From assembly GCA_030603385.1 (NCBI GenBank), contig JAUVXW010000012.1, positions 28,015-92,014 of the forward strand: a DNA stretch of 64,000 nucleotides. The letters are read 5' to 3'. Positions 44,241 through 55,003 of the stretch are shown piece by piece. Each line of letters opens with the position of its first letter. Position 1 is the stretch's first letter. Made by a program: the position numbers and the translations under genes. Under the pieces are notes generated by a model. The model was not told the DNA's origin, made no database searches, and saw nothing but the letters and a program-made list of their open reading frames with translations. The stretch comes from Promethearchaeota archaeon (GTDB taxonomy: Archaea > Asgardarchaeota > Lokiarchaeia > Sigyniarchaeales > SOKP01).

Positions 44241-44891
44241 CTATATAAAATATTTTTTTTGCATTTTTACATACTCATTGTAGTCCAAAAACTCTCTTTC
44301 AACATACTGGAAAACAATTTCATATAATTGACGAAATAATTCTTCAGGGAACGCTTTTTGCTCAAACACTACTTCATAAACTAATTCTTCAGAGAGAATT
44401 TGTGAATTGATTGATTGATGGCATAATAAAAAGTTCATCATCGCTTTATCGACTTTTGATTTGATAAGTTTTTTAATAACGTTCAAACCAATATCTCTTT
44501 TCGGATCGACAAAATAGGGAAAATTCATATCATCCAAAATTTTAATGTAATTTAAGGAATCTGTTATCTTTTCCACACAATATTCCAATGAGCTAACTGG
44601 AAGGCCAAATTTTTCGCAAAAATCTTTCTTCGACTCGTGAGCAGGAAAAGTAAAAGGGTGTCTTGAGATGATATAATATGCCGCTATAAAGAATTTATAT
44701 AAATTATGAGGGAATTTTCCGTTATTTCTTAAATACTTATAGACCAATGAAGCAGTATCTAATAAAAGATCAGTATTAATGTCAAATTGCTCTAAAAAAT
44801 CTTGACCATCTTTTAATAGATCAATAGTAATACGTTCTTTGGTATTGATAATTTCATAATCAGGGGTATAAAGTTCTAACATTTTACACAC
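44241..44891 (-). CDS. Hypothetical protein with a single cyclin/TFB-like helical fold
   Basis: FFIAAYYIISR..SKKDFCEKFGLPVSSLEYCVEKI matches the TFIIB cyclin-repeat pattern; no Zn ribbon; start probably MLELY. Confidence 0.55.
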   Translation of the reverse strand: MCKMLELYTPDYEIINTKERITIDLLKDGQDFLEQFDINTDLLLDTASLVYKYLRNNGKFPHNLYKFFIAAYYIISRHPFTFPAHESKKDFCEKFGLPVSSLEYCVEKITDSLNYIKILDDMNFPYFVDPKRDIGLNVIKKLIKSKVDKAMMNFLLCHQSINSQILSEELVYEVVFEQKAFPEELFRQLYEIVFQYVEREFLDYNEYVKMQKKYFI

Positions 44892-44939: not shown

Positions 44940-44995
44940 ATGATCATCTTCCTTTATAAACCTATGCATCTTCAGTGATGCATCAAATGATCATC
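44940..44995. promoter_or_regulatory. Divergent promoter with palindromic operator-like sites
   Basis: ATGATCATC at 44940 and 44987; ATGCATC-N6-GATGCAT at 44964-44983; TTTATAAA at 44953-44960. Confidence 0.5.
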
Positions 44996-45070
44996 AAAGA
45001 CGAACATTTAAATATTCGTGTAAAAATGATAATATTAAGCGATAAAAATTTTGTCGGGTAACTTAAAAAA

Positions 45071-45496
45071 ATGCCATCAGATTCGGGAAAAACATCAGAT
45101 CTTTCTAGAATTACTTTTAGTCTAGATGCTTTTGATGAAAGAGTTTTAACCCTGATGGCAAAAAAGAGAAAGCAATCTCGGTCTGAAACTGTCAGAAATA
45201 TAATACATAATTGGATTGAAGGCAACTCGAACACATTGAACAGCAATTATGATATCGATTTGAATGATATTACAAGAGAAATCGAAATAACGGATTACAA
45301 CCAAGTGATACAGAGCACTATTCAAAAAATAGTAGAATATTCAGAGCTATTCAATGAAATTGAATTTGATATGTTTGCTGAACAGCTAAAAATTAGCAAA
45401 AAAATCTTAAGAGATATCATATTTGATCACAAAAATAAATTAGAAAAACTTGGCGTTAAACTTAGAATTAGAGGAAAACTAATAGTAAAAGAATAG
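45071..45496 (+). CDS. Ribbon-helix-helix regulator fused to a C-terminal winged-helix (PCI-like) domain
   Basis: RITFSLD..LTLMAKKRKQSRSETVRNII; FNEIEFDMFAEQLKISKKILRDII..LRIRGKLIV. Confidence 0.7.
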   Translation: MPSDSGKTSDLSRITFSLDAFDERVLTLMAKKRKQSRSETVRNIIHNWIEGNSNTLNSNYDIDLNDITREIEITDYNQVIQSTIQKIVEYSELFNEIEFDMFAEQLKISKKILRDIIFDHKNKLEKLGVKLRIRGKLIVKE

Positions 45497-45510: not shown

Positions 45511-45762
45511 ATGCATATAAGAAAATTAGAGGGACTTTTTCAAGAGATTCTGGAAACTTCACATGAAATTTCTTATGAATGTATCTCAGAAAATGAAAAT
45601 GATATTGACTATTCAAAAATCATAATCCCTTTTTCTAAAGTATTTAAATCTTATAAGCCAAGAGATATTTATCCGGGGAATAAAAAAATTCCCTTCAAAG
45701 AAAAGAATCTTGAATTTAGGATGATATTAAAGCAGGAATTCTCTACTATATTGAAATCTTAA
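45511..45762 (+). CDS. Small protein, paralog 1 of the 'P.DIY.G...IPF.E' family
   Basis: DYSKIIIPFS..PRDIYPG..IPFKEK..FRMILKQEF. Confidence 0.75.
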   Translation: MHIRKLEGLFQEILETSHEISYECISENENDIDYSKIIIPFSKVFKSYKPRDIYPGNKKIPFKEKNLEFRMILKQEFSTILKS

Positions 45763-45946
45763 CCCCTGTACAAAACAAGCTGTTTTTACCATAATTAAAT
45801 TTGATAGAATGTGGACCTATCAATATAACATCATGGTCCTGACACCTATTATCGCAGATAGAAATTTAGATATAAAATTCTTTAATGATTAATTCCCACA
45901 TAAGAACTAAAAGCTAATAAAAAAGAAAAAAATACTTTATTTAATT

Positions 45947-46798
45947 TTAGGGAAAGGTTAAAGTTGCTACCACTGGCAAGTGATCAGAACCGAATTCAGA
46001 GGGACTATTACCTGATAAAAAATCTGTGATTACATGCCCATCAATTATGTCTTTATATCCCGCTGCAAATATGTAATCAATACTACTTGTTGAATCATCA
46101 AATAGATTTATGCTTGGAAATGTCATTGGTCTTGGAACTCCACTTAATGTATCATTAAAGTATGTAAATAGTGGTGCGATTTGAGAAGAGTTATATTCTA
46201 AATTGAAATCTCCCATGAGAATTTTTTTAGAAGTTTTATTAACCTCATTTGTTTTTTGAAGGACAAAATCAACTTGAGCTGCTAAATCTTCATCCCAATC
46301 TAAAAGCCCTAGGTGGGTAACAAATACATCGATCTCGAGAGTTTCATTTATTGCAATAACTCCATGAATTAAGACCCTTTCTAAAGAAATACTAGGAATC
46401 TGATATCCTTCCGCAGACTTTATTGGATATTTACTTAGAAGTGCTAAACCGTATGCGTGTTCATTTATTGCCGGAAAATAAAAATAATGCATATTGAGTC
46501 TTTTTGCCAACCAGAATGCCATATCTACTCCTTGGGAAGTCATTCTTCCATTTTCTACTTCTTGGAGGCCTATTATATCTGGATCGATATCTTCACTTAG
46601 AATATTCTGTGCTAATCTCTCTAAGTTCAATAAATCATCCATCCCAACACCAAAATGAATATTATAGGTCATGAACTTGAATTCATTTTTTGGAGAGGGG
46701 TTTTCTATAGGAAGCTCACTGATACCAAACATCACAAAAGAGATAATAAGTGGCGTACAAAATAAACTTATGAAAATTATTCTACGTTTTTTATTCAT
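45947..46798 (-). CDS. Endonuclease/exonuclease/phosphatase (EEP) domain protein, Cwh43-C-like
   Basis: TYNIHFG, GLQE, LLSKYPI, THL, GDFN, IDYIF, SDHLP; N-terminal TM helix. Confidence 0.88.
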   Translation of the reverse strand: MNKKRRIIFISLFCTPLIISFVMFGISELPIENPSPKNEFKFMTYNIHFGVGMDDLLNLERLAQNILSEDIDPDIIGLQEVENGRMTSQGVDMAFWLAKRLNMHYFYFPAINEHAYGLALLSKYPIKSAEGYQIPSISLERVLIHGVIAINETLEIDVFVTHLGLLDWDEDLAAQVDFVLQKTNEVNKTSKKILMGDFNLEYNSSQIAPLFTYFNDTLSGVPRPMTFPSINLFDDSTSSIDYIFAAGYKDIIDGHVITDFLSGNSPSEFGSDHLPVVATLTFP

Positions 46799-48087
46799 CT
46801 TTCTAAAACCTCCTCATTTGATTTAATAATAATTGCATAGATAGTTGAAATAGAAAAAATAATTCCCCCTAAAATCATTATCAAGGGCCCTAAACCTTTC
46901 ATCGCAGTAATTATAGCTGCCCACTCTGTTGTAAAAGCGTGTAAAAAGGAAAACAATACCATAAACGCAAACCCTATCGTTAAACCGTTAGAAACTGTTT
47001 TTACTTTCTCCCATTTAAAACTTATTTTTGATAACCGGTTGATTAACAAATAGAAGTTTAAATACATGACTATGAGTGAAATTGAAATGAAAATACTTGC
47101 AATATATGTTAACTCTTTCCCAATCGTAAAGAATAAACACAGCGATAAAATCATAAAGCCATTTAAGATTCCGATAATCAATTTATTTGAAATTATTTCA
47201 ATTTTGATATAAACCAGTATATAAATTGCAATCATCACAGAAACTATGTTCAAAATATTATTGAAAAAATAATTAGTGTTAGTAAATTGCCCAATTCCAC
47301 TTGGATAGAGAAAAAGATTAAATAGGAGGAATAAAAACATCCCAATCCCTGCAAAAATTAGAGAATTTAATGTACTAAGATTATTGCCCGTACTCTCTTC
47401 TTGAGGAGATATATTATTTCTTATTGAAAATCTCGGGAAATGTATTTTTGTGAAATATATACATAAAATGCTTAAGGGTATTTGAATAAATAACCAAATA
47501 TACTGCGTTAGACGCCAATCTACGATTAAACCTGGTGCTAAAAGCGAAATGTCTTGAGAAAAACCAATTGTTCTTATTAAATAGTCAATAAGGAAGGCGC
47601 TAAAAAAGGAAAATATAATAATTACAGTTTTATGATCTACTCCAATATCATCACTTTCTTCTATCCATAATGTAAGGAATGTGCTCATGTAAAAACCATA
47701 ACACGCTATTATTATTCCCGAATAGATTATTTCTAAATTAAATGGTAAATGAAAAGCCCATAAAAGTCTCACGATAACAATGATATAAATAGATGAGATC
47801 ATTAAACGTCCTTTATCAATCTTCTTACAGATTGTATTAGTCAAACCTGGCAAAAATAAGAAAATTAAAGCTAACAAGGAAATGAGATTCACCAGAACTT
47901 CTTCTCCAAATACAACATGAAATAATGCTATACGTATAGCTGGAAAAAATCCTCTCAGACTCTGTATAAAAAATAAATTTATCAATATGTTGATAGTAAT
48001 AAGAGCGATTAGAGATTTCGAACCAATTTTCTTTTCTATCTCAGTAAATGAGAAATTAGATTTTGTTTTATTCATCAATTTTTTCAC
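46795..48087 (-). CDS. Polytopic membrane protein coupled to the EEP gene
   Basis: More than ten hydrophobic segments; stop overlaps the EEP start (ATGA). Confidence 0.75.
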   Translation of the reverse strand: MKKLMNKTKSNFSFTEIEKKIGSKSLIALITINILINLFFIQSLRGFFPAIRIALFHVVFGEEVLVNLISLLALIFLFLPGLTNTICKKIDKGRLMISSIYIIVIVRLLWAFHLPFNLEIIYSGIIIACYGFYMSTFLTLWIEESDDIGVDHKTVIIIFSFFSAFLIDYLIRTIGFSQDISLLAPGLIVDWRLTQYIWLFIQIPLSILCIYFTKIHFPRFSIRNNISPQEESTGNNLSTLNSLIFAGIGMFLFLLFNLFLYPSGIGQFTNTNYFFNNILNIVSVMIAIYILVYIKIEIISNKLIIGILNGFMILSLCLFFTIGKELTYIASIFISISLIVMYLNFYLLINRLSKISFKWEKVKTVSNGLTIGFAFMVLFSFLHAFTTEWAAIITAMKGLGPLIMILGGIIFSISTIYAIIIKSNEEVLER

Positions 48088-48313
48088 ATTTTGTAGGTAA
48101 ATTAAAAATAATTCAAGGATAAAAAAGTAGTTTATTTTTTTAATATATCTTTCTTTTTTAAAAAAGAAAACGCAAAAACTAGCCTAATTTTTTTTTAGAT
48201 ACTCCTTGATGTATTTGTACAGCCCCGAGGATTTTTAATAAGATTTTTAATCCATTTAGGATTAAGAATCAAAGCATTATAGATTTAAAAGTATTACTAT
48301 AAGGAGATAATAT

Positions 48314-49501
48314 TTGGAGATTCGAAAATTAACCGAAAAGGATCGTGAAGCATTTAGAAAATTAATGCGATATGCGTTTGAAACAGCAAAGAATAATTAT
48401 GAGGAGTTAAAATGGCCATCAGACAAGGTACCTATGGATTTGCATTATGGAGCATTTGATGAGGAACAATTAGTAGCCGGAGCAGGGATTATTCCGTTTG
48501 ATATCAGAATGCGTTCTCAAGATTTTAAGATGTATGGAGTAGGGGGGGTTGCCTCAAAACCGGAGTATCGCAATCGAGGCATTATTCGGGAAATTATGAT
48601 AAAAATGTTTAAAGATATGCAAGATAATAATATCCCGCTATCCGTACTATATCCATTTAAGCATTCCTTTTATGAGATGTTAGGATATAAACTGGTTGAT
48701 GAACAATTTACCTATGAATTTAATATCTCGGATATTCTATACAGAGAAACAGATTATCACTTGAAAGAAGTCGAAAGGATAAATGATGATATTAGAAGCG
48801 TTTATGATCGAGCTATTTTAAATTTTGATTATATTGCGAAAAGACCTGAGATTCAATATTGGAGACGTTTATATAAAAATAATTACAAATTCATTTGCTA
48901 CAATCGAAATCTGCCTGTAGGTTATGTAATAATCAATTTCCCTAATTGGGAAGCTAAGTGGATAAAACATCCAGAAAAAACAATATTAATCCTAGAGACT
49001 TTCTGGCTTGACCAATCTGCTAAACAGACAATATTTAATTTTCTTTGGAGTCATCGAGATCAACGAAAATATGTAGCTGGGAGTTTTTCTGCATACGAAA
49101 ATATCACAGATCTTTTAAAAACACCCCGAATAAAATCGAGATATATAACGGACAACTCTCTTTTAAGAATAATAGATGTAAAAAATGTCTTAGAGAATTT
49201 GAAATATCCTTGTGATAACTTTTCCATAATTTTCCACATCAATGATACATATTGCCCTTGGAACAACGGATTTTTCACATTAACCTCAAAAGGAAAAGAA
49301 ATCAATATAGAATTTAAAGAGTCATCAGAATTATCTGCTGATATTGAGATAGATATTGGGTATTTTGCACAACTGGTAGCAGGATTTAGAACAGTAAGAG
49401 ATCTATTAGAATTTGGCTTTACTTCAGTCAATCATGAAAAGCTCGAGCTTCTACAAAAATTATTTCCTAAGACTAATAATTATTTCCATGATTTTTTCTA
49501 A
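48314..49501 (+). CDS. Eis-like GNAT acetyltransferase with SCP2-like C-terminus
   Basis: GVASKPEYRNRG, LYPF..FYEMLGY, DTYCPWNNG, ends FHDFF. Confidence 0.9.
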   Translation: MEIRKLTEKDREAFRKLMRYAFETAKNNYEELKWPSDKVPMDLHYGAFDEEQLVAGAGIIPFDIRMRSQDFKMYGVGGVASKPEYRNRGIIREIMIKMFKDMQDNNIPLSVLYPFKHSFYEMLGYKLVDEQFTYEFNISDILYRETDYHLKEVERINDDIRSVYDRAILNFDYIAKRPEIQYWRRLYKNNYKFICYNRNLPVGYVIINFPNWEAKWIKHPEKTILILETFWLDQSAKQTIFNFLWSHRDQRKYVAGSFSAYENITDLLKTPRIKSRYITDNSLLRIIDVKNVLENLKYPCDNFSIIFHINDTYCPWNNGFFTLTSKGKEINIEFKESSELSADIEIDIGYFAQLVAGFRTVRDLLEFGFTSVNHEKLELLQKLFPKTNNYFHDFF

Positions 49502-49556
49502 TTAAAATTCCTTATATTTATTACTTAACCGTTTGTAAAAAAAAAGAAAAGATTAA

Positions 49557-50093
49557 TCAGTGCAACTGATTAAAATTTTTAAGTAGAGATAAAATCTCAT
49601 TACAATCTATTTGAAAATCTAAATTGTAATCACCACATATTACCCATGGATTTTTAAATGTTCCGTTTCCCCATTCTTCCTCATTTTCATCCGTCTTTAG
49701 ACCTGTTAATTTAGGTTTAATATCATGGAGGAGTTTATCGTAGGCACCTTCTAAATTATTCAAAGAAACCATATCTTTTAATGTGGTTAATTTGTTTATC
49801 ATCGTATTTTTTCTATTGCTTGCGGGTTTTCGCCAACATTCGTCAGGTGAACCTTCTATCTTTTCAATTAGAATATCTATTAATTCATAAATAGTTGGTT
49901 CAACAATCGTAGCAATACTTGTATCCCCACTATTATGCTCTTCGTCCACTAATGGTGATTGGTCAATAGGAAGTATGTTAGAACTCACATTACGATGACT
50001 ATTGATATCAAAAATAATTAATGCCCCGACAATATTACTTGAAACTATGAATATTAAACCAAAACACAACAGAGCTATGTGTTTTCTCATCAT
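49557..50093 (-). CDS. Secreted hypothetical protein
   Basis: N-terminal signal/TM segment followed by a helical domain. Confidence 0.65.
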   Translation of the reverse strand: MMRKHIALLCFGLIFIVSSNIVGALIIFDINSHRNVSSNILPIDQSPLVDEEHNSGDTSIATIVEPTIYELIDILIEKIEGSPDECWRKPASNRKNTMINKLTTLKDMVSLNNLEGAYDKLLHDIKPKLTGLKTDENEEEWGNGTFKNPWVICGDYNLDFQIDCNEILSLLKNFNQLH

Positions 50094-50374
50094 TTTCTTT
50101 AATATTGATTTTAAATTATAAATTTAAATCATAAAAAAGTAAGTAAGAATAATATTTATACATTTTTCAGGTTCAATTTTTCATATAAATGTCTTCTTGA
50201 TTAGAATATCAACGCAAATCTTCCTTTCTCATTTAATTCACTGGAAAATGCGTAAAAATCGATGTTTTTTATTTAAAAACTTTTGGTTTTGTTTACCATT
50301 ATATATAGCCATTTCAATTAATAGAATAACAAATAATTTGATAACACAACCATTAAGTTTAAGAGATTTTAATT

Positions 50375-50590
50375 ATGATCACAGAAGATGTTATTAAAAT
50401 TTATCAAAAAAATATTAATCAATTTGAAGAAAATTTATATCCAGATATCTCAGGTGCAGTAATGTCTTTTTCAGATGTACACAAATTTGAAGCCCCTCAA
50501 TATATTTACAACGGGGATGAAGAAATTCCTTTCAATGAAAGACACCCTGAATATCAACGGATTTTTAAAGAAGAATTTCTTGATAAATGA
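50375..50590 (+). CDS. Small protein, paralog 2 of the family
   Basis: PDISGAVMSFS..PQYIYNG..IPFNER..YQRIFKEEF. Confidence 0.75.
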   Translation: MITEDVIKIYQKNINQFEENLYPDISGAVMSFSDVHKFEAPQYIYNGDEEIPFNERHPEYQRIFKEEFLDK

Positions 50591-50699
50591 GCTATTCTTT
50601 AGGAAGAATAATTGATATTCATTTGGAGTTATTTTAGTAAAAAAGCTGTTTCTTTATATATGTAGATTTAGACAAATCGTAAAAGAACGCAATTCTACG

Positions 50700-51011
50700 A
50701 TGACCTTTAAGTCAAATTCTATTGAAAAACAGGTTGAAGATTTTTTAGAAAACTCATTTGGCACAGATGATTATTTCTTTGATAGTGAAATTCAGAAAAA
50801 GAGGTTTGTTTTGCTATCAAAACTTGTTGCAGACTTATTTAATTGCAAAAATTCAACTGTATGCTTTCATAATATCTCGAATTTAATAATTCTTATTTTA
50901 AATATATACAATGAGAAATTTCCTGTTGATGTTTACTCTAATAGTAAAATATGTAGAAGAAAAAAGCCCAATTCCAAATTAAAACATATCATAAAAGAAA
51001 ATTTGCTGTAG
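50700..51011 (+). CDS. Small protein, divergent paralog 3 of the family
   Basis: NISNLIILIL..PVDVYSN..LKHIIKEN, same spacing as the other members. Confidence 0.6.
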   Translation: MTFKSNSIEKQVEDFLENSFGTDDYFFDSEIQKKRFVLLSKLVADLFNCKNSTVCFHNISNLIILILNIYNEKFPVDVYSNSKICRRKKPNSKLKHIIKENLL

Positions 51012-51097
51012 GATTAAATTATTCACTGCATATTACTGATTATAATGATATCACTAAATTTGTTGGGAGTTTTCTCTTAAATTATCATAATACTATT

Positions 51098-51382
51098 TTG
51101 AAATTAAAAAAAATGAGTAAGGGGTTCAAATTGAGTTTAAAAGTATTAGGTAAAAAAATGGTTGATGTTGAACAAGAATTTGAAGTAGTTGAAAAGTTTC
51201 CAGATATTTCAAGATTAATCATCCCTTTCTCCATTGCGTTTAAAAAATTCAACCCTCCAGATATATATAATGGAGAAGAATTAATCCCATTTCAGGAGAA
51301 AGATTTAGATTTTAAAGAAATATTTATTCAGGAGTTTTTAACGGAATCAAACAATTCCAAAAAAGTCAATAAAAGGAAATAA
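51098..51382 (+). CDS. Small protein, paralog 4 of the family
   Basis: PDISRLIIPFS..PPDIYNG..IPFQEK..FKEIFIQEF. Confidence 0.75.
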   Translation: MKLKKMSKGFKLSLKVLGKKMVDVEQEFEVVEKFPDISRLIIPFSIAFKKFNPPDIYNGEELIPFQEKDLDFKEIFIQEFLTESNNSKKVNKRK

Positions 51383-51438
51383 ATGATTAAATATTCTATT
51401 TTCTTCTTTCTTATTTATTTGTAGAATTGCTAATAGTA

Positions 51439-51759
51439 TTAAATATTTCTTGTACTCGTTGAAATTGATTTTGGCATAAGAAACACATTTAAACACATAG
51501 GACAAGAATTATATTTTAATAACCAAGAAGTAATACATGCAGGATGATATTGGCTATCGCAGTAAGAACATTTTATCGTATTATTTTTCTTTGGACCAAT
51601 ATATTCATGGCATATTGTGCATTGAGTTTTCAATTTTGAAGATTTATAACTTTTTCTCAATTTAATGCCACAAAAACAACAGTAATTCAATTGAGATATA
51701 TTACATCCTTGAATTTTTTTCCCGCAATAGGGACAATAATTGAATTTATGCAATGTCAA
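51439..51759 (-). CDS. Zinc-ribbon + RING-finger protein (E3 ligase-like)
   Basis: CPYC..CCFC, then CTIC..CSYC..HPACITSWLLKYNSCPMC. Confidence 0.85.
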   Translation of the reverse strand: MTLHKFNYCPYCGKKIQGCNISQLNYCCFCGIKLRKSYKSSKLKTQCTICHEYIGPKKNNTIKCSYCDSQYHPACITSWLLKYNSCPMCLNVFLMPKSISTSTRNI

Positions 51760-52411: not shown

Positions 52412-53200
52412 TTACTTGAACTTATTGATGAATTCTTTCAATGGTGTTAAATATTCATCTTCGAAAGAAAAAATATTATTATGGCCAGCACCCTCTATTA
52501 ACACTAATTTTTTCTCAACACCTTCAGGCAAACTTTCATATATTAATTGCCCCTGAATGGAAGGAATAATAAAATCATTAGTACCATGAATGACTAATAC
52601 AGGTTTTTGGAATTTTCTTATTCTTGTATCGTTCGAATATTCACTTAATAATTCTGGTGTTATTTCAGAACCTGTTACTCTAAACAATCTTGACATCATA
52701 TCGTATATACTTGCAAACCCACTTTCAAAAATAATTCCACGTAAACTCTCAGGATTGTGTGAACCAATTTCAGATGTGCATATGCTTCCCAATGAGCGTC
52801 CCAGAATAAATAAAGAATCGCTAATACTATTTTTAATCATCCATTTATAAAATTCATTATATATTGGAAGGGCATCCGTTATTAAACTGGTATAATATGG
52901 TTCACCTGAACTAAATCCATATCCACGAAAATCCACAACCGCTAAGTTAACATTACACTCAAAAAAGAAATTTAAAAAATATTGATAGTCTGCCGCAATC
53001 TCACCATTTCCATGGAACATTAAAATGGTAGGAAAATTTGGATTATTTAAATAAAAAAATCCTCCAATGAGAATGTTTTTATCTATTTGAAGTTTTAAGA
53101 CTCTGATGTTTGGGTCTTTTTCATCAGGAATCAGAATCTTTCGAGGATAAAAAACAACATTAGAAACTGCTGGATTATCAATCAACAATTTTTTTACCAT
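52412..53200 (-). CDS. Alpha/beta hydrolase (ABHD13/17-like)
   Basis: FHGNGE, DFRGYG.S.G, GRSLGS, HGTND, GAGHN. Confidence 0.9.
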   Translation of the reverse strand: MVKKLLIDNPAVSNVVFYPRKILIPDEKDPNIRVLKLQIDKNILIGGFFYLNNPNFPTILMFHGNGEIAADYQYFLNFFFECNVNLAVVDFRGYGFSSGEPYYTSLITDALPIYNEFYKWMIKNSISDSLFILGRSLGSICTSEIGSHNPESLRGIIFESGFASIYDMMSRLFRVTGSEITPELLSEYSNDTRIRKFQKPVLVIHGTNDFIIPSIQGQLIYESLPEGVEKKLVLIEGAGHNNIFSFEDEYLTPLKEFINKFK

Positions 53201-53358
53201 ACTATAAAACCTCTTACTTAAACTTAAAAAATTTTCTTTAATACTTTTACAATTTCCTTAATAATTTTTTGATAAAAATGTAAAATTTTATATTGTATGA
53301 AAAAAAGGATATAATCGCCTAATATAGTCTAATTATAAAAAAAAGGTGAATCCAAAAT

Positions 53359-53670
53359 ATGGGAATAATGATGGTAACAACTTGGTATCCTATGCATAAA
53401 TCAATGGATGTTGCAAAAAAGTATCTTAAAGCACCTAGAGAGATTCCATTTGTAACAAAATGGCGTGTTTTCAATACACCAGCTGGAAAAGATGGAATGA
53501 AGCAATATCATATACTTTATACTGAGAGAGGAAAGCTTGAAGAAGCGGGAGAGGGAGTTTTCAAATATTTTATGCCCTTTGCTTTTGAAATTGAAGGATT
53601 TCATATTGCTACTGAAAATTTAATGGGAGTTTCTGATTCCTATAGAACTATAGGGTTGGAATGGAAATAA
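53359..53670 (+). CDS. Hypothetical protein (probable ferredoxin-like alpha/beta fold)
   Basis: 103 aa ORF with GGTG SD-like motif upstream and a T-rich tract downstream. Confidence 0.7.
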   Translation: MGIMMVTTWYPMHKSMDVAKKYLKAPREIPFVTKWRVFNTPAGKDGMKQYHILYTERGKLEEAGEGVFKYFMPFAFEIEGFHIATENLMGVSDSYRTIGLEWK

Positions 53671-53706
53671 TTTCAATAAAATACTACTTTTTTTTCATTT
53701 TTTTTA

Positions 53707-54225
53707 TTAAAATCTATGTTTTTTGTAGTAGATCAATAGGATACCCATTGTTCCGAATAATACCATAATGAAAGAAGTAAGTGAAAAATCGATACCTTGT
53801 CCGTTATCATTTGTACAAACGTCGTATCCAGCACTTTTCCATGCTGAAATACCACCATCCATGTTATATACTTTCGTAAATCCATTAATATCGAGAATTT
53901 GGCTTGCATCTGCACTTCTAGAACCAGATTGGCAATAAACAATTATCTCAGTATTATTGTAAGGATAGAGCTCATTCAAATTTGATTCGAGTTCATCGAG
54001 AGGTATTAGAGTGGCATTACATATATGTTCTGCATCATATTCACCTTGGGTTCTGACGTCTAAAATAACTAAATCTGGATAAAGAGTAGAGTTAGTTATC
54101 ATTTCATGAGCATCCTCAACAGAAATAATTTCAACCATTCCTCTAACAGGAACTATTGATATCTGACCGACGACTGAGAATGAACAGAGTATGATTAGAA
54201 TAAAAATTAATTTTTTCCGAACCAT
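53707..54225 (-). CDS. Membrane-anchored extracellular rhodanese-domain protein
   Basis: Signal peptide; LDVRT..EY..HI, YCQSGSRS, DGGISAW; C-terminal TM helix. Confidence 0.9.
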   Translation of the reverse strand: MVRKKLIFILIILCSFSVVGQISIVPVRGMVEIISVEDAHEMITNSTLYPDLVILDVRTQGEYDAEHICNATLIPLDELESNLNELYPYNNTEIIVYCQSGSRSADASQILDINGFTKVYNMDGGISAWKSAGYDVCTNDNGQGIDFSLTSFIMVLFGTMGILLIYYKKHRF

Positions 54226-54256
54226 TATCTCTCACGATTTTTTACTAATATTTAAG

Positions 54257-55003
54257 TTATTGTGCTTTTCCTTGATCTGCTACGGCTTTAATAGCGTCTT
54301 CAACTTTTGAAAGGTCTCCGAGATAATAGTGGTTAATCGGTTTCATCTTCTCATCTAACTCATATATTAATGGTATTCCCGTAGGGATATTTAATTTTAC
54401 TATTTCTTCCTCTGGAACATTGTCAAGGTATTTGACAAGAGCTCTTAGGCTATTTCCATGAGCAGAAATCAAAACTCTTTTTCCTGATTCAATAATAGGG
54501 ACGATTGTTTCATGCCAATAAGGTAAAACTCTTTCTACAGTGTCTTTGAGGCACTCAGTCAAAGGAATTTCTTCTGATTTCAATTCACTATACCTCCTAT
54601 CATTTCCAGGATATCTTGGATCACTGGTTTTAAGAGCTGGTGGGGGTACATCATAACTTCTCCTCCAAATAAGAACCTGTTCTTCCCCATTTTCTGCCGC
54701 CATCTTAGCCTTATAAAATCCTTGCAAAGCACCGTAATGCCTTTCATTTAATCTCCATGAACGATAAATAGGAAGCCACATTAAATCCATCTCATCCAAA
54801 ACAATCCACAAAGATCTTATTCCCCTTTTTAAAACGGATGTAAAAGCAATATCAAAAGTATAACCTTCTTCTTTTAGTAATCTAGCTGCTTCTTTTGCTT
54901 CTTCAACTCCTTTTTCTGAAAGATCTACATCAGTCCAACCTGTGAAACGGTTTTCCTTATTCCAAATACTTTCCCCATGCCGTAATAAAACAACCTTATA
55001 CAT
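54257..55003 (-). CDS. gpmA: 2,3-bisphosphoglycerate-dependent phosphoglycerate mutase
   Basis: [28 protein letters not shown]. Confidence 0.97.

Follow-up and report, generated by a model that had tools for sequence, protein, structure and literature searches.

How cyclin-fold proteins are controlled in Asgard archaea is described as an open question (PMC7617429). That question is raised in a specific form by a 64,000-nucleotide stretch of a Promethearchaeota archaeon genome (contig JAUVXW010000012.1 of assembly GCA_030603385.1; hereafter the window). Here a cyclin-box candidate (CYC, the 44241-44891 protein), an RHH gene, four genes of a paralogous small-protein family (M) and a RING gene lie within a few kilobases (Table 1). 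What do the M proteins act on? A reading of the sequence alone had proposed that M proteins share a docking motif, act with the cyclin-fold protein and are possibly turned over by the RING ligase. We find that M is restricted to one Promethearchaeota family and that one M copy is recurrently linked to RHH and CYC. Our preferred reading, which we hold tentatively and consider open to serious doubt, is that M proteins serve as small binding modules, disordered in part, whose target is a cyclin-fold transcription factor.

The M family and its motif

The open reading frames of the sequence-only reading were all found where it had placed them, and its 45-residue motif fitted copies A, B and D (45511, 50375 and 51098) without gaps, the single deviation being a valine at the first isoleucine of the pattern in 50375. 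In tblastn comparisons 45511 matched 51098 (55% over 47 residues, E 4.6e-11) and 50375 (42% over 45 residues, E 7e-6), and 50375 matched 51098 (46% over 48 residues, E 1.7e-7). For each pair among these copies, none of 500 shuffles equalled the best ungapped 45-residue score; for each of the three pairs that include 50700, at most 1 of 500 did. Likeness between the N-termini was no better than between shuffles (101-284 of 500), in keeping with the description of them as unrelated. Taken singly, 50700 was not significant in searches with a hidden Markov model (HMM) of three sequences (E 7.7) or one of 146 representatives built without it (E 0.77). Its orthologues matched the 146-representative HMM, down to E 2.5e-10, and their alignment matched the M family over 54 gap-free columns in a profile-profile comparison (probability 96.4, E 1.3e-9). 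Orthologues and profile comparison together thus show 50700 to be a divergent member with the same spacing. All four genes belong to M; as a count of the family, four was too low, since the genome holds seven members, two more on contig C48 and one on contig C22.

Pooled Nei-Gojobori dN/dS over the motif was 0.13 for copy A (9 orthologues), 0.30 for B (6), 0.12 for C (9) and 0.17 for D (7). The N-terminal ratios were 0.61-0.81 for A, B and D (0.81 for A) and 0.19 for C. These values are rough, because the sets were hand-chosen from loci with clear orthologues and dS was high. The M genes are real and under purifying selection. A tree built from 88 members over 61 alignment columns appeared to group the majority of copies by genomic position across species. 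RNA evidence, drawn from contigs of 4 of the 8 listed runs, was uninformative: the only RNA library giving any coverage reached the start of CYC, the RHH gene and a membrane gene, but no M gene.

A six-sequence profile found M in 101 of the 134 genomes of its own family and in none of 265 other genomes of the phylum. A 144-sequence profile, partly built from the genomes searched, raised this to 114 of 134, with 1-9 matches each, and found none in 26 genomes elsewhere in the class. M is restricted to one Promethearchaeota family. Protein database searches returned 559 and 225 relatives; among the matches listed nearly all were shorter than 135 residues, and those with a named source were mostly from Promethearchaeota. 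At E 0.1, every Pfam or NCBIfam family stayed at or below 2 matching members in a set of 96 and 1 in a set of 144. A PDB sequence search gave one chance match (E 0.77), fold searches with a monomer model reached at best Z 2.6 with no Foldseek match, and an atlas search returned unnamed clusters only. We found no description of the family in the literature searched, which did not extend to subscription papers. The description of the family as unrecognised thus stands, no characterised family having matched consistently in the HMM and profile searches, and M is apparently a real, lineage-restricted and undescribed family.

The conserved positions in 312 non-redundant members form three segments, I-I-P-F-S, I-Y-x-G-x-E-x-I-P-F and F/Y-K-x-I-L-x-x-E-F. 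They are mostly hydrophobic, contain no Cys/His site and no catalytic signature, and the median net charge of these members is 0. Simple patterns detect the full set of three segments in 232 of 351 members; 42 are without the first only, 39 without the second only and 16 without both, and the C-terminal helix is kept in 329. The motif is modular as judged from these patterns, and its predicted amphipathic C-terminal helix is nearly always retained. In genus g12, a pair of M genes often stands behind RHH, one without the first segment and the other without the second. This modularity, together with the split copies of g12, favours an array of binding segments rather than one compact domain. The monomer model was not compact (predicted template modelling score, pTM, 0.29), and its predicted local distance difference test (pLDDT) values were 78-85 over residues 51-80 only.

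M also occurs in fusions. Three are single records: EVE-M (P0262), a protein labelled OsmC-like by eye joined to M (P0137), and the C-terminus of an RHH protein joined to M (P0139). None of the 7998 candidates in a search of longer proteins for fusions was scored. Separately, genera g11 and g5 repeatedly show one or two M modules joined to an uncharacterised C-terminal domain of about 180 residues (L056:6326-7297, L055:5506-6285, P0223); this domain had no stand-alone match in the source genome.

Table 1. Features of the window around the M genes (window positions)
Feature	Position	Strand	Remarks
CYC, 216 residues	44241..44891	-	N-half probably one TFIIB/cyclin box with HTH, without Zn ribbon; weak profile matches
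Divergent promoter, probable RHH operator	44940..45014		TATA-like boxes at ~44952 (to CYC) and ~45006 (to RHH) around TGATCA/ATGCATC repeats
TTTTGTCGG element before RHH start	45049..45058		Related element precedes M copy D
RHH repressor (predicted), 141 residues	45071..45496	+	C-terminal HTH-like domain; first gene of RHH-M unit; RHH_1 over cut-off
M copy A, 83 residues	45511..45762	+	Starts 14 bp behind RHH; motif 45607-45741; position conserved
M copy B, 71 residues	50375..50590	+	Motif 50444-50578; own TATA-like box ~50297
M copy C, degenerate, 103 residues	50700..51011	+	Conserved N-terminal extension; core 50871-51005; own TATA-like box ~50650
Conserved upstream element and TATA-like box of M copy D	51056..51084		Site in 17/19 D-type upstream regions
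M copy D, 94 residues (89 from ATG 51113)	51098..51382	+	Motif 51203-51337
Zn-ribbon and C4HC3 RING-variant protein, 106 residues	51439..51759	-	Convergent neighbour; zf-RING_2 26.5 bits, just under cut-off

One M copy at the RHH-CYC locus

The RHH_1 match of 45071 scored 21.4 bits against a cut-off of 20.5, and 14 of 28 orthologues matched at E 0.05. RHH has the same range as M, 114 of 134 genomes of the family and 0 of 26 elsewhere in the class. Loci were picked through RHH; 3 in each set had too little sequence and were set aside, as was one RHH-like match that fell within a long open reading frame. In the testable loci M lies directly behind RHH in 26/26 close relatives and 25/36 cases from other genera (51/62 in total), and CYC is divergent from RHH in 25/26 and 35/36 respectively (60/62). 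By genus, M follows RHH in 20/20 loci of g12, 2/2 of g13, 1/1 of g6 and 2/2 of g2, the last being weak and partly circular; in g6, where M is single-copy, it stands exactly behind RHH in the 4/4 loci seen. A regulatory linkage had been suggested for the M genes with both the cyclin-fold and RING genes. Neighbourhood analysis upheld the first part, one copy recurring with RHH and CYC at a common divergent promoter, and gave no support to RING as part of it.

The layout of this promoter is similar in relatives' loci across the family. An intergenic cluster of at least three TGATCA/ATGCATC repeats occurs in the CYC-RHH region alone in the genome, and these repeats are a candidate RHH operator that would control both directions. 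[quoted passage not shown] M copies B, C and D each have a separate TATA-like box. The position of that of copy D (51074-51084) suggests that the ATG at 51113 may be the true start.

The TTTTGTCGG element is present in 23 of 31 RHH upstream regions versus 101 of 3457 background genes; it is common in intergenic DNA genome-wide and so is not specific to M. TTTGTCG was rejected as the site of an M regulon: 79 of its 269 occurrences are intergenic genome-wide, against 17% expected. The same sequence, found in either orientation (45049-45058; 51056-51067) and enriched between genes, may be recognised by a regulator of broader scope. The idea that M genes have a promoter type of their own was also discarded, since like pyrimidine-TATA patterns precede many genes.

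The order of an RHH gene and a small gene could also mark a toxin-antitoxin-like or mobile cassette with the other M copies as orphans. Type II toxin-antitoxin systems with an RHH antitoxin have such an RHH gene followed by a small gene, and the RHH types of this locus cross genera. However, M is multi-copy and stable in chromosomal position, its copies cluster by position in the tree, many stand without RHH, and it has no catalytic signature. No viral relative was confirmed among 190 pattern matches. A type II system was rejected as a candidate, there being no consistent match to a toxin family and no tight coevolution with RHH, and of the explanations considered we regard a cassette as the most improbable.

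M could instead be an anti-repressor or co-repressor bound to the C-terminal domain of RHH. The two genes would share an operon, their ranges are identical, and the P0139 protein joins an RHH C-terminus to M. On the other hand P0139 is a single record that may be an assembly artefact, and RHH is replaced in place while M stays: between loci L047 and L048 identity is 93% for CYC and 85% for M, and only 37% for RHH. Over 65 triplets M distance tracked CYC distance with a Spearman correlation of 0.79 (0.72 with RHH held constant), whereas the correlation with RHH was 0.47 and its partial value 0.10, though the partial value reached 0.42 in one 18-locus subset. No P-values are given, because kin are not independent. 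Since neighbouring genes track M too, this co-divergence argues against RHH as the partner more than for CYC. We consider an RHH partner unlikely.

Three observations concern RHH itself. It has been swapped in place between conserved flanks (45071-45496; L047:6746-7153 vs L048:8316-8780), several RHH types with differing DNA-binding strands cross genus borders, and in L120 (G162:C49:5242-5949) RHH-like units stand at the end of a 2455-codon open frame.

CYC and the partner of M

CYC was matched in 231 of 400 genomes of the Asgard phylum, mostly once per genome. Its N-half aligned in register with TFB repeat 2 over 78 columns by hhalign (probability 27, E 6.6e-4) and weakly with cyclin B1 (E 0.1), and Cyclin_N and TFIIB were each found in 2 of 29 CYC members (E 0.013-0.021). 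The nearest known families on this evidence would be TFB/TFIIB (PF00382) and cyclins (PF00134). All the scores lie below cut-off, and the C-terminal half of CYC matches neither TFB repeat. A structure model from a 13-sequence alignment was poor (pLDDT 39.8). The cyclin-fold label is tentative, and the weak matches resemble one TFIIB repeat rather than a cyclin that binds a cyclin-dependent kinase (CDK). No kinase gene was recognised among the open reading frames of the window around CYC. Two assignments were rejected. CYC is no TFB/TFIIB, having no Cys ribbon and at most one recognisable repeat, and PF00382 finds six other genes, the true TFBs of the genome, which are separate from CYC. Membership in DUF6398, proposed by an atlas lead (score 0.89), was not confirmed: PF19935 matched no CYC gene in 5 genomes.

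CYC is conserved in many Asgard lineages and missing from several families, and it has no Pfam assignment. A CYC-like domain also occurs in frames of 841 and 642 residues (L004; G000:C6:55468-57990, 52526-54451; E 4e-7, 7e-7), the longer also showing, as judged by eye, HTH-like and TPR-like regions. A preprint mentions Asgard genes of a 'cyclin-like' type, possibly including CYC (10.1101/2021.04.02.438162).

We propose the following mechanism. M would be a non-enzymatic protein with a variable N-terminal tail and three segments (IIPFS, IYxGxExIPF and the C-terminal helix F/Y-K-x-I-L-x-x-E-F) that fold largely upon binding a partner. Copy A would be co-transcribed with RHH. RHH, bound to the repeats between the two divergent TATA boxes, would set the expression level of RHH-M and of the facing CYC gene. 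The terminal helix of M would dock on CYC or a related TFB and so damp or retune the factor, and the duplicated copies with their own promoters could provide separate inputs to the same target.

This logic resembles that of Sulfolobus TFB2-aCcr1, a precedent for feedback between a cyclin-fold factor and an RHH protein (10.64898/2026.09.06.749720; PMC7617429). There too a cyclin-fold transcription factor is paired with an RHH repressor whose sites lie beside a TATA box (10.64898/2026.09.06.749720; PMC9976878). TFB2, however, is a TFIIB paralogue, whereas in CYC a single repeat is detectable and the Zn ribbon is missing. RHH 45071 carries an additional C-terminal domain and has a single candidate operator cluster, and its locus is known from sequence and not from a cell-cycle role. 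The portions of the TFB2-aCcr1 accounts consulted contain no M-like family.

The p27/Kip CDK inhibitors and DSS1/Sem1 are small disordered multi-motif binders with a terminal amphipathic helix that fold on a partner. M is likewise small, with short conserved segments and a terminal helix of this kind, and would likewise fold on its partner. No Pfam model of those families matched 96 or 144 M members (E 0.1), and DSS1 is strongly acidic whereas M has no net charge at the median. Since M arose in one family only, the likeness to eukaryotic regulators is an analogy, not an ancestry.

Several observations weigh against a CYC or TFB partner and against disorder. Outside the family, 114 of 265 genomes have CYC but no M, so that CYC does not need M, and its cyclin-box assignment is weak. 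M is absent behind RHH in g11 (0/6), g5 (0/4) and g3 (0/1). The M-CYC correlation was equalled by a neighbouring hydrolase and a 200-residue neighbour, so that M-CYC tracking may be plain descent, and gene order is well conserved across the whole genus. F41, I60, F62, F69 and F77 are weakly coupled, which like the local pLDDT values suits a small folded domain, and the low pTM may stem from the tail of the modelled protein.

It is nearly as likely that M is a mini-domain or oligomer on another vertically inherited machine (RNA polymerase, ribosome, proteasome or helicase) or on Y, a second small family, and that its place beside RHH only records its origin. Further M copies are found adjacent to Hef- and Hel308-like helicase genes, adjoining Y or close to unrelated enzymes; M distances follow those of housekeeping neighbours roughly as closely as those of CYC, and the couplings and local pLDDT permit a folded core. 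Against this, the RHH-adjacent position persists in six genera, and among 20 loci picked through Y, whose flanks were short, just 2 have M within 1.5 kb downstream.

Y is itself undescribed, multicopy and small, probably with a three-helix core ending RYFMKLYL (L001:5970-6230 = G000:C48:50969-51232; G000:C11:31382-31846). It was found in 120 of 134 genomes of the family with 1-6 matches, and a Y gene often stands directly upstream of an M gene. Homology of Y to M was not found by hhalign.

Binding of M to CYC or a TFB, as in our preferred reading, would mean that archaea have a family of small proteins that inhibit a cyclin-fold factor; if M binds neither, it is still a well-defined lineage marker. 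Three elements make the locus compact and testable: a conserved candidate cyclin-box protein, an RHH repressor with a defined operator candidate, and seven paralogous 45-residue modules. A more far-reaching and improbable extension is that a widely conserved, stand-alone Asgard cyclin-box protein was joined, within a single Lokiarchaeia family, by an RHH repressor acting in feedback and by a growing set of disordered, CDK-inhibitor-like M proteins that bind it, giving a kinase-free switch that times transcription and possibly the cell cycle in a lineage related to eukaryotes.

The RING gene and other neighbours

The 51439 protein has RING spacing, with eight zinc ligands (C47, C50, C64, C67, H72, C75, C86, C89), W79 and a CPxC, and the ligands and tryptophan are invariant in 13 orthologues. 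One explanation, after the sequence-only reading, makes M proteins its adaptors or substrates. The genome encodes an E2, and in 20 of 22 loci no more than 1.4 kb separates the RING gene from an M gene. These loci were mostly picked through M, however, and in 12 of the 20 close cases the genes are 0.76-1.3 kb apart, mostly with another gene between. When loci of the sister genus g12 were picked through RING, M was found within about 3.5 kb in 0 of 20, one antisense match at E 0.007 being dismissed. Where RING adjoins M, synteny is just as strong for a hydrolase gene and for a phosphoglycerate mutase gene (17/23 loci each). The E2 gene is on another contig, the RING gene is convergent with M, M distance does not track RING distance (0.33), and the ligase role is a prediction. 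The RING protein is thus probably no part of the M system; turnover of M by it found no support, and we judge the adaptor or substrate explanation very unlikely.

Elsewhere in the genome a 688-residue protein, coiled-coil-like by eye, has a C-terminal RING related to that of 51439 (L003:3205-5271; G000:C3). Its gene adjoins a proteasome beta-like gene and is near a gelsolin-like gene (labels by eye), and similar matches occur across the family. Within the window, the gene at 49557-50093 encodes a 178-residue protein with an N-terminal hydrophobic segment and no Pfam match; a homologue is present in one other locus of 23.

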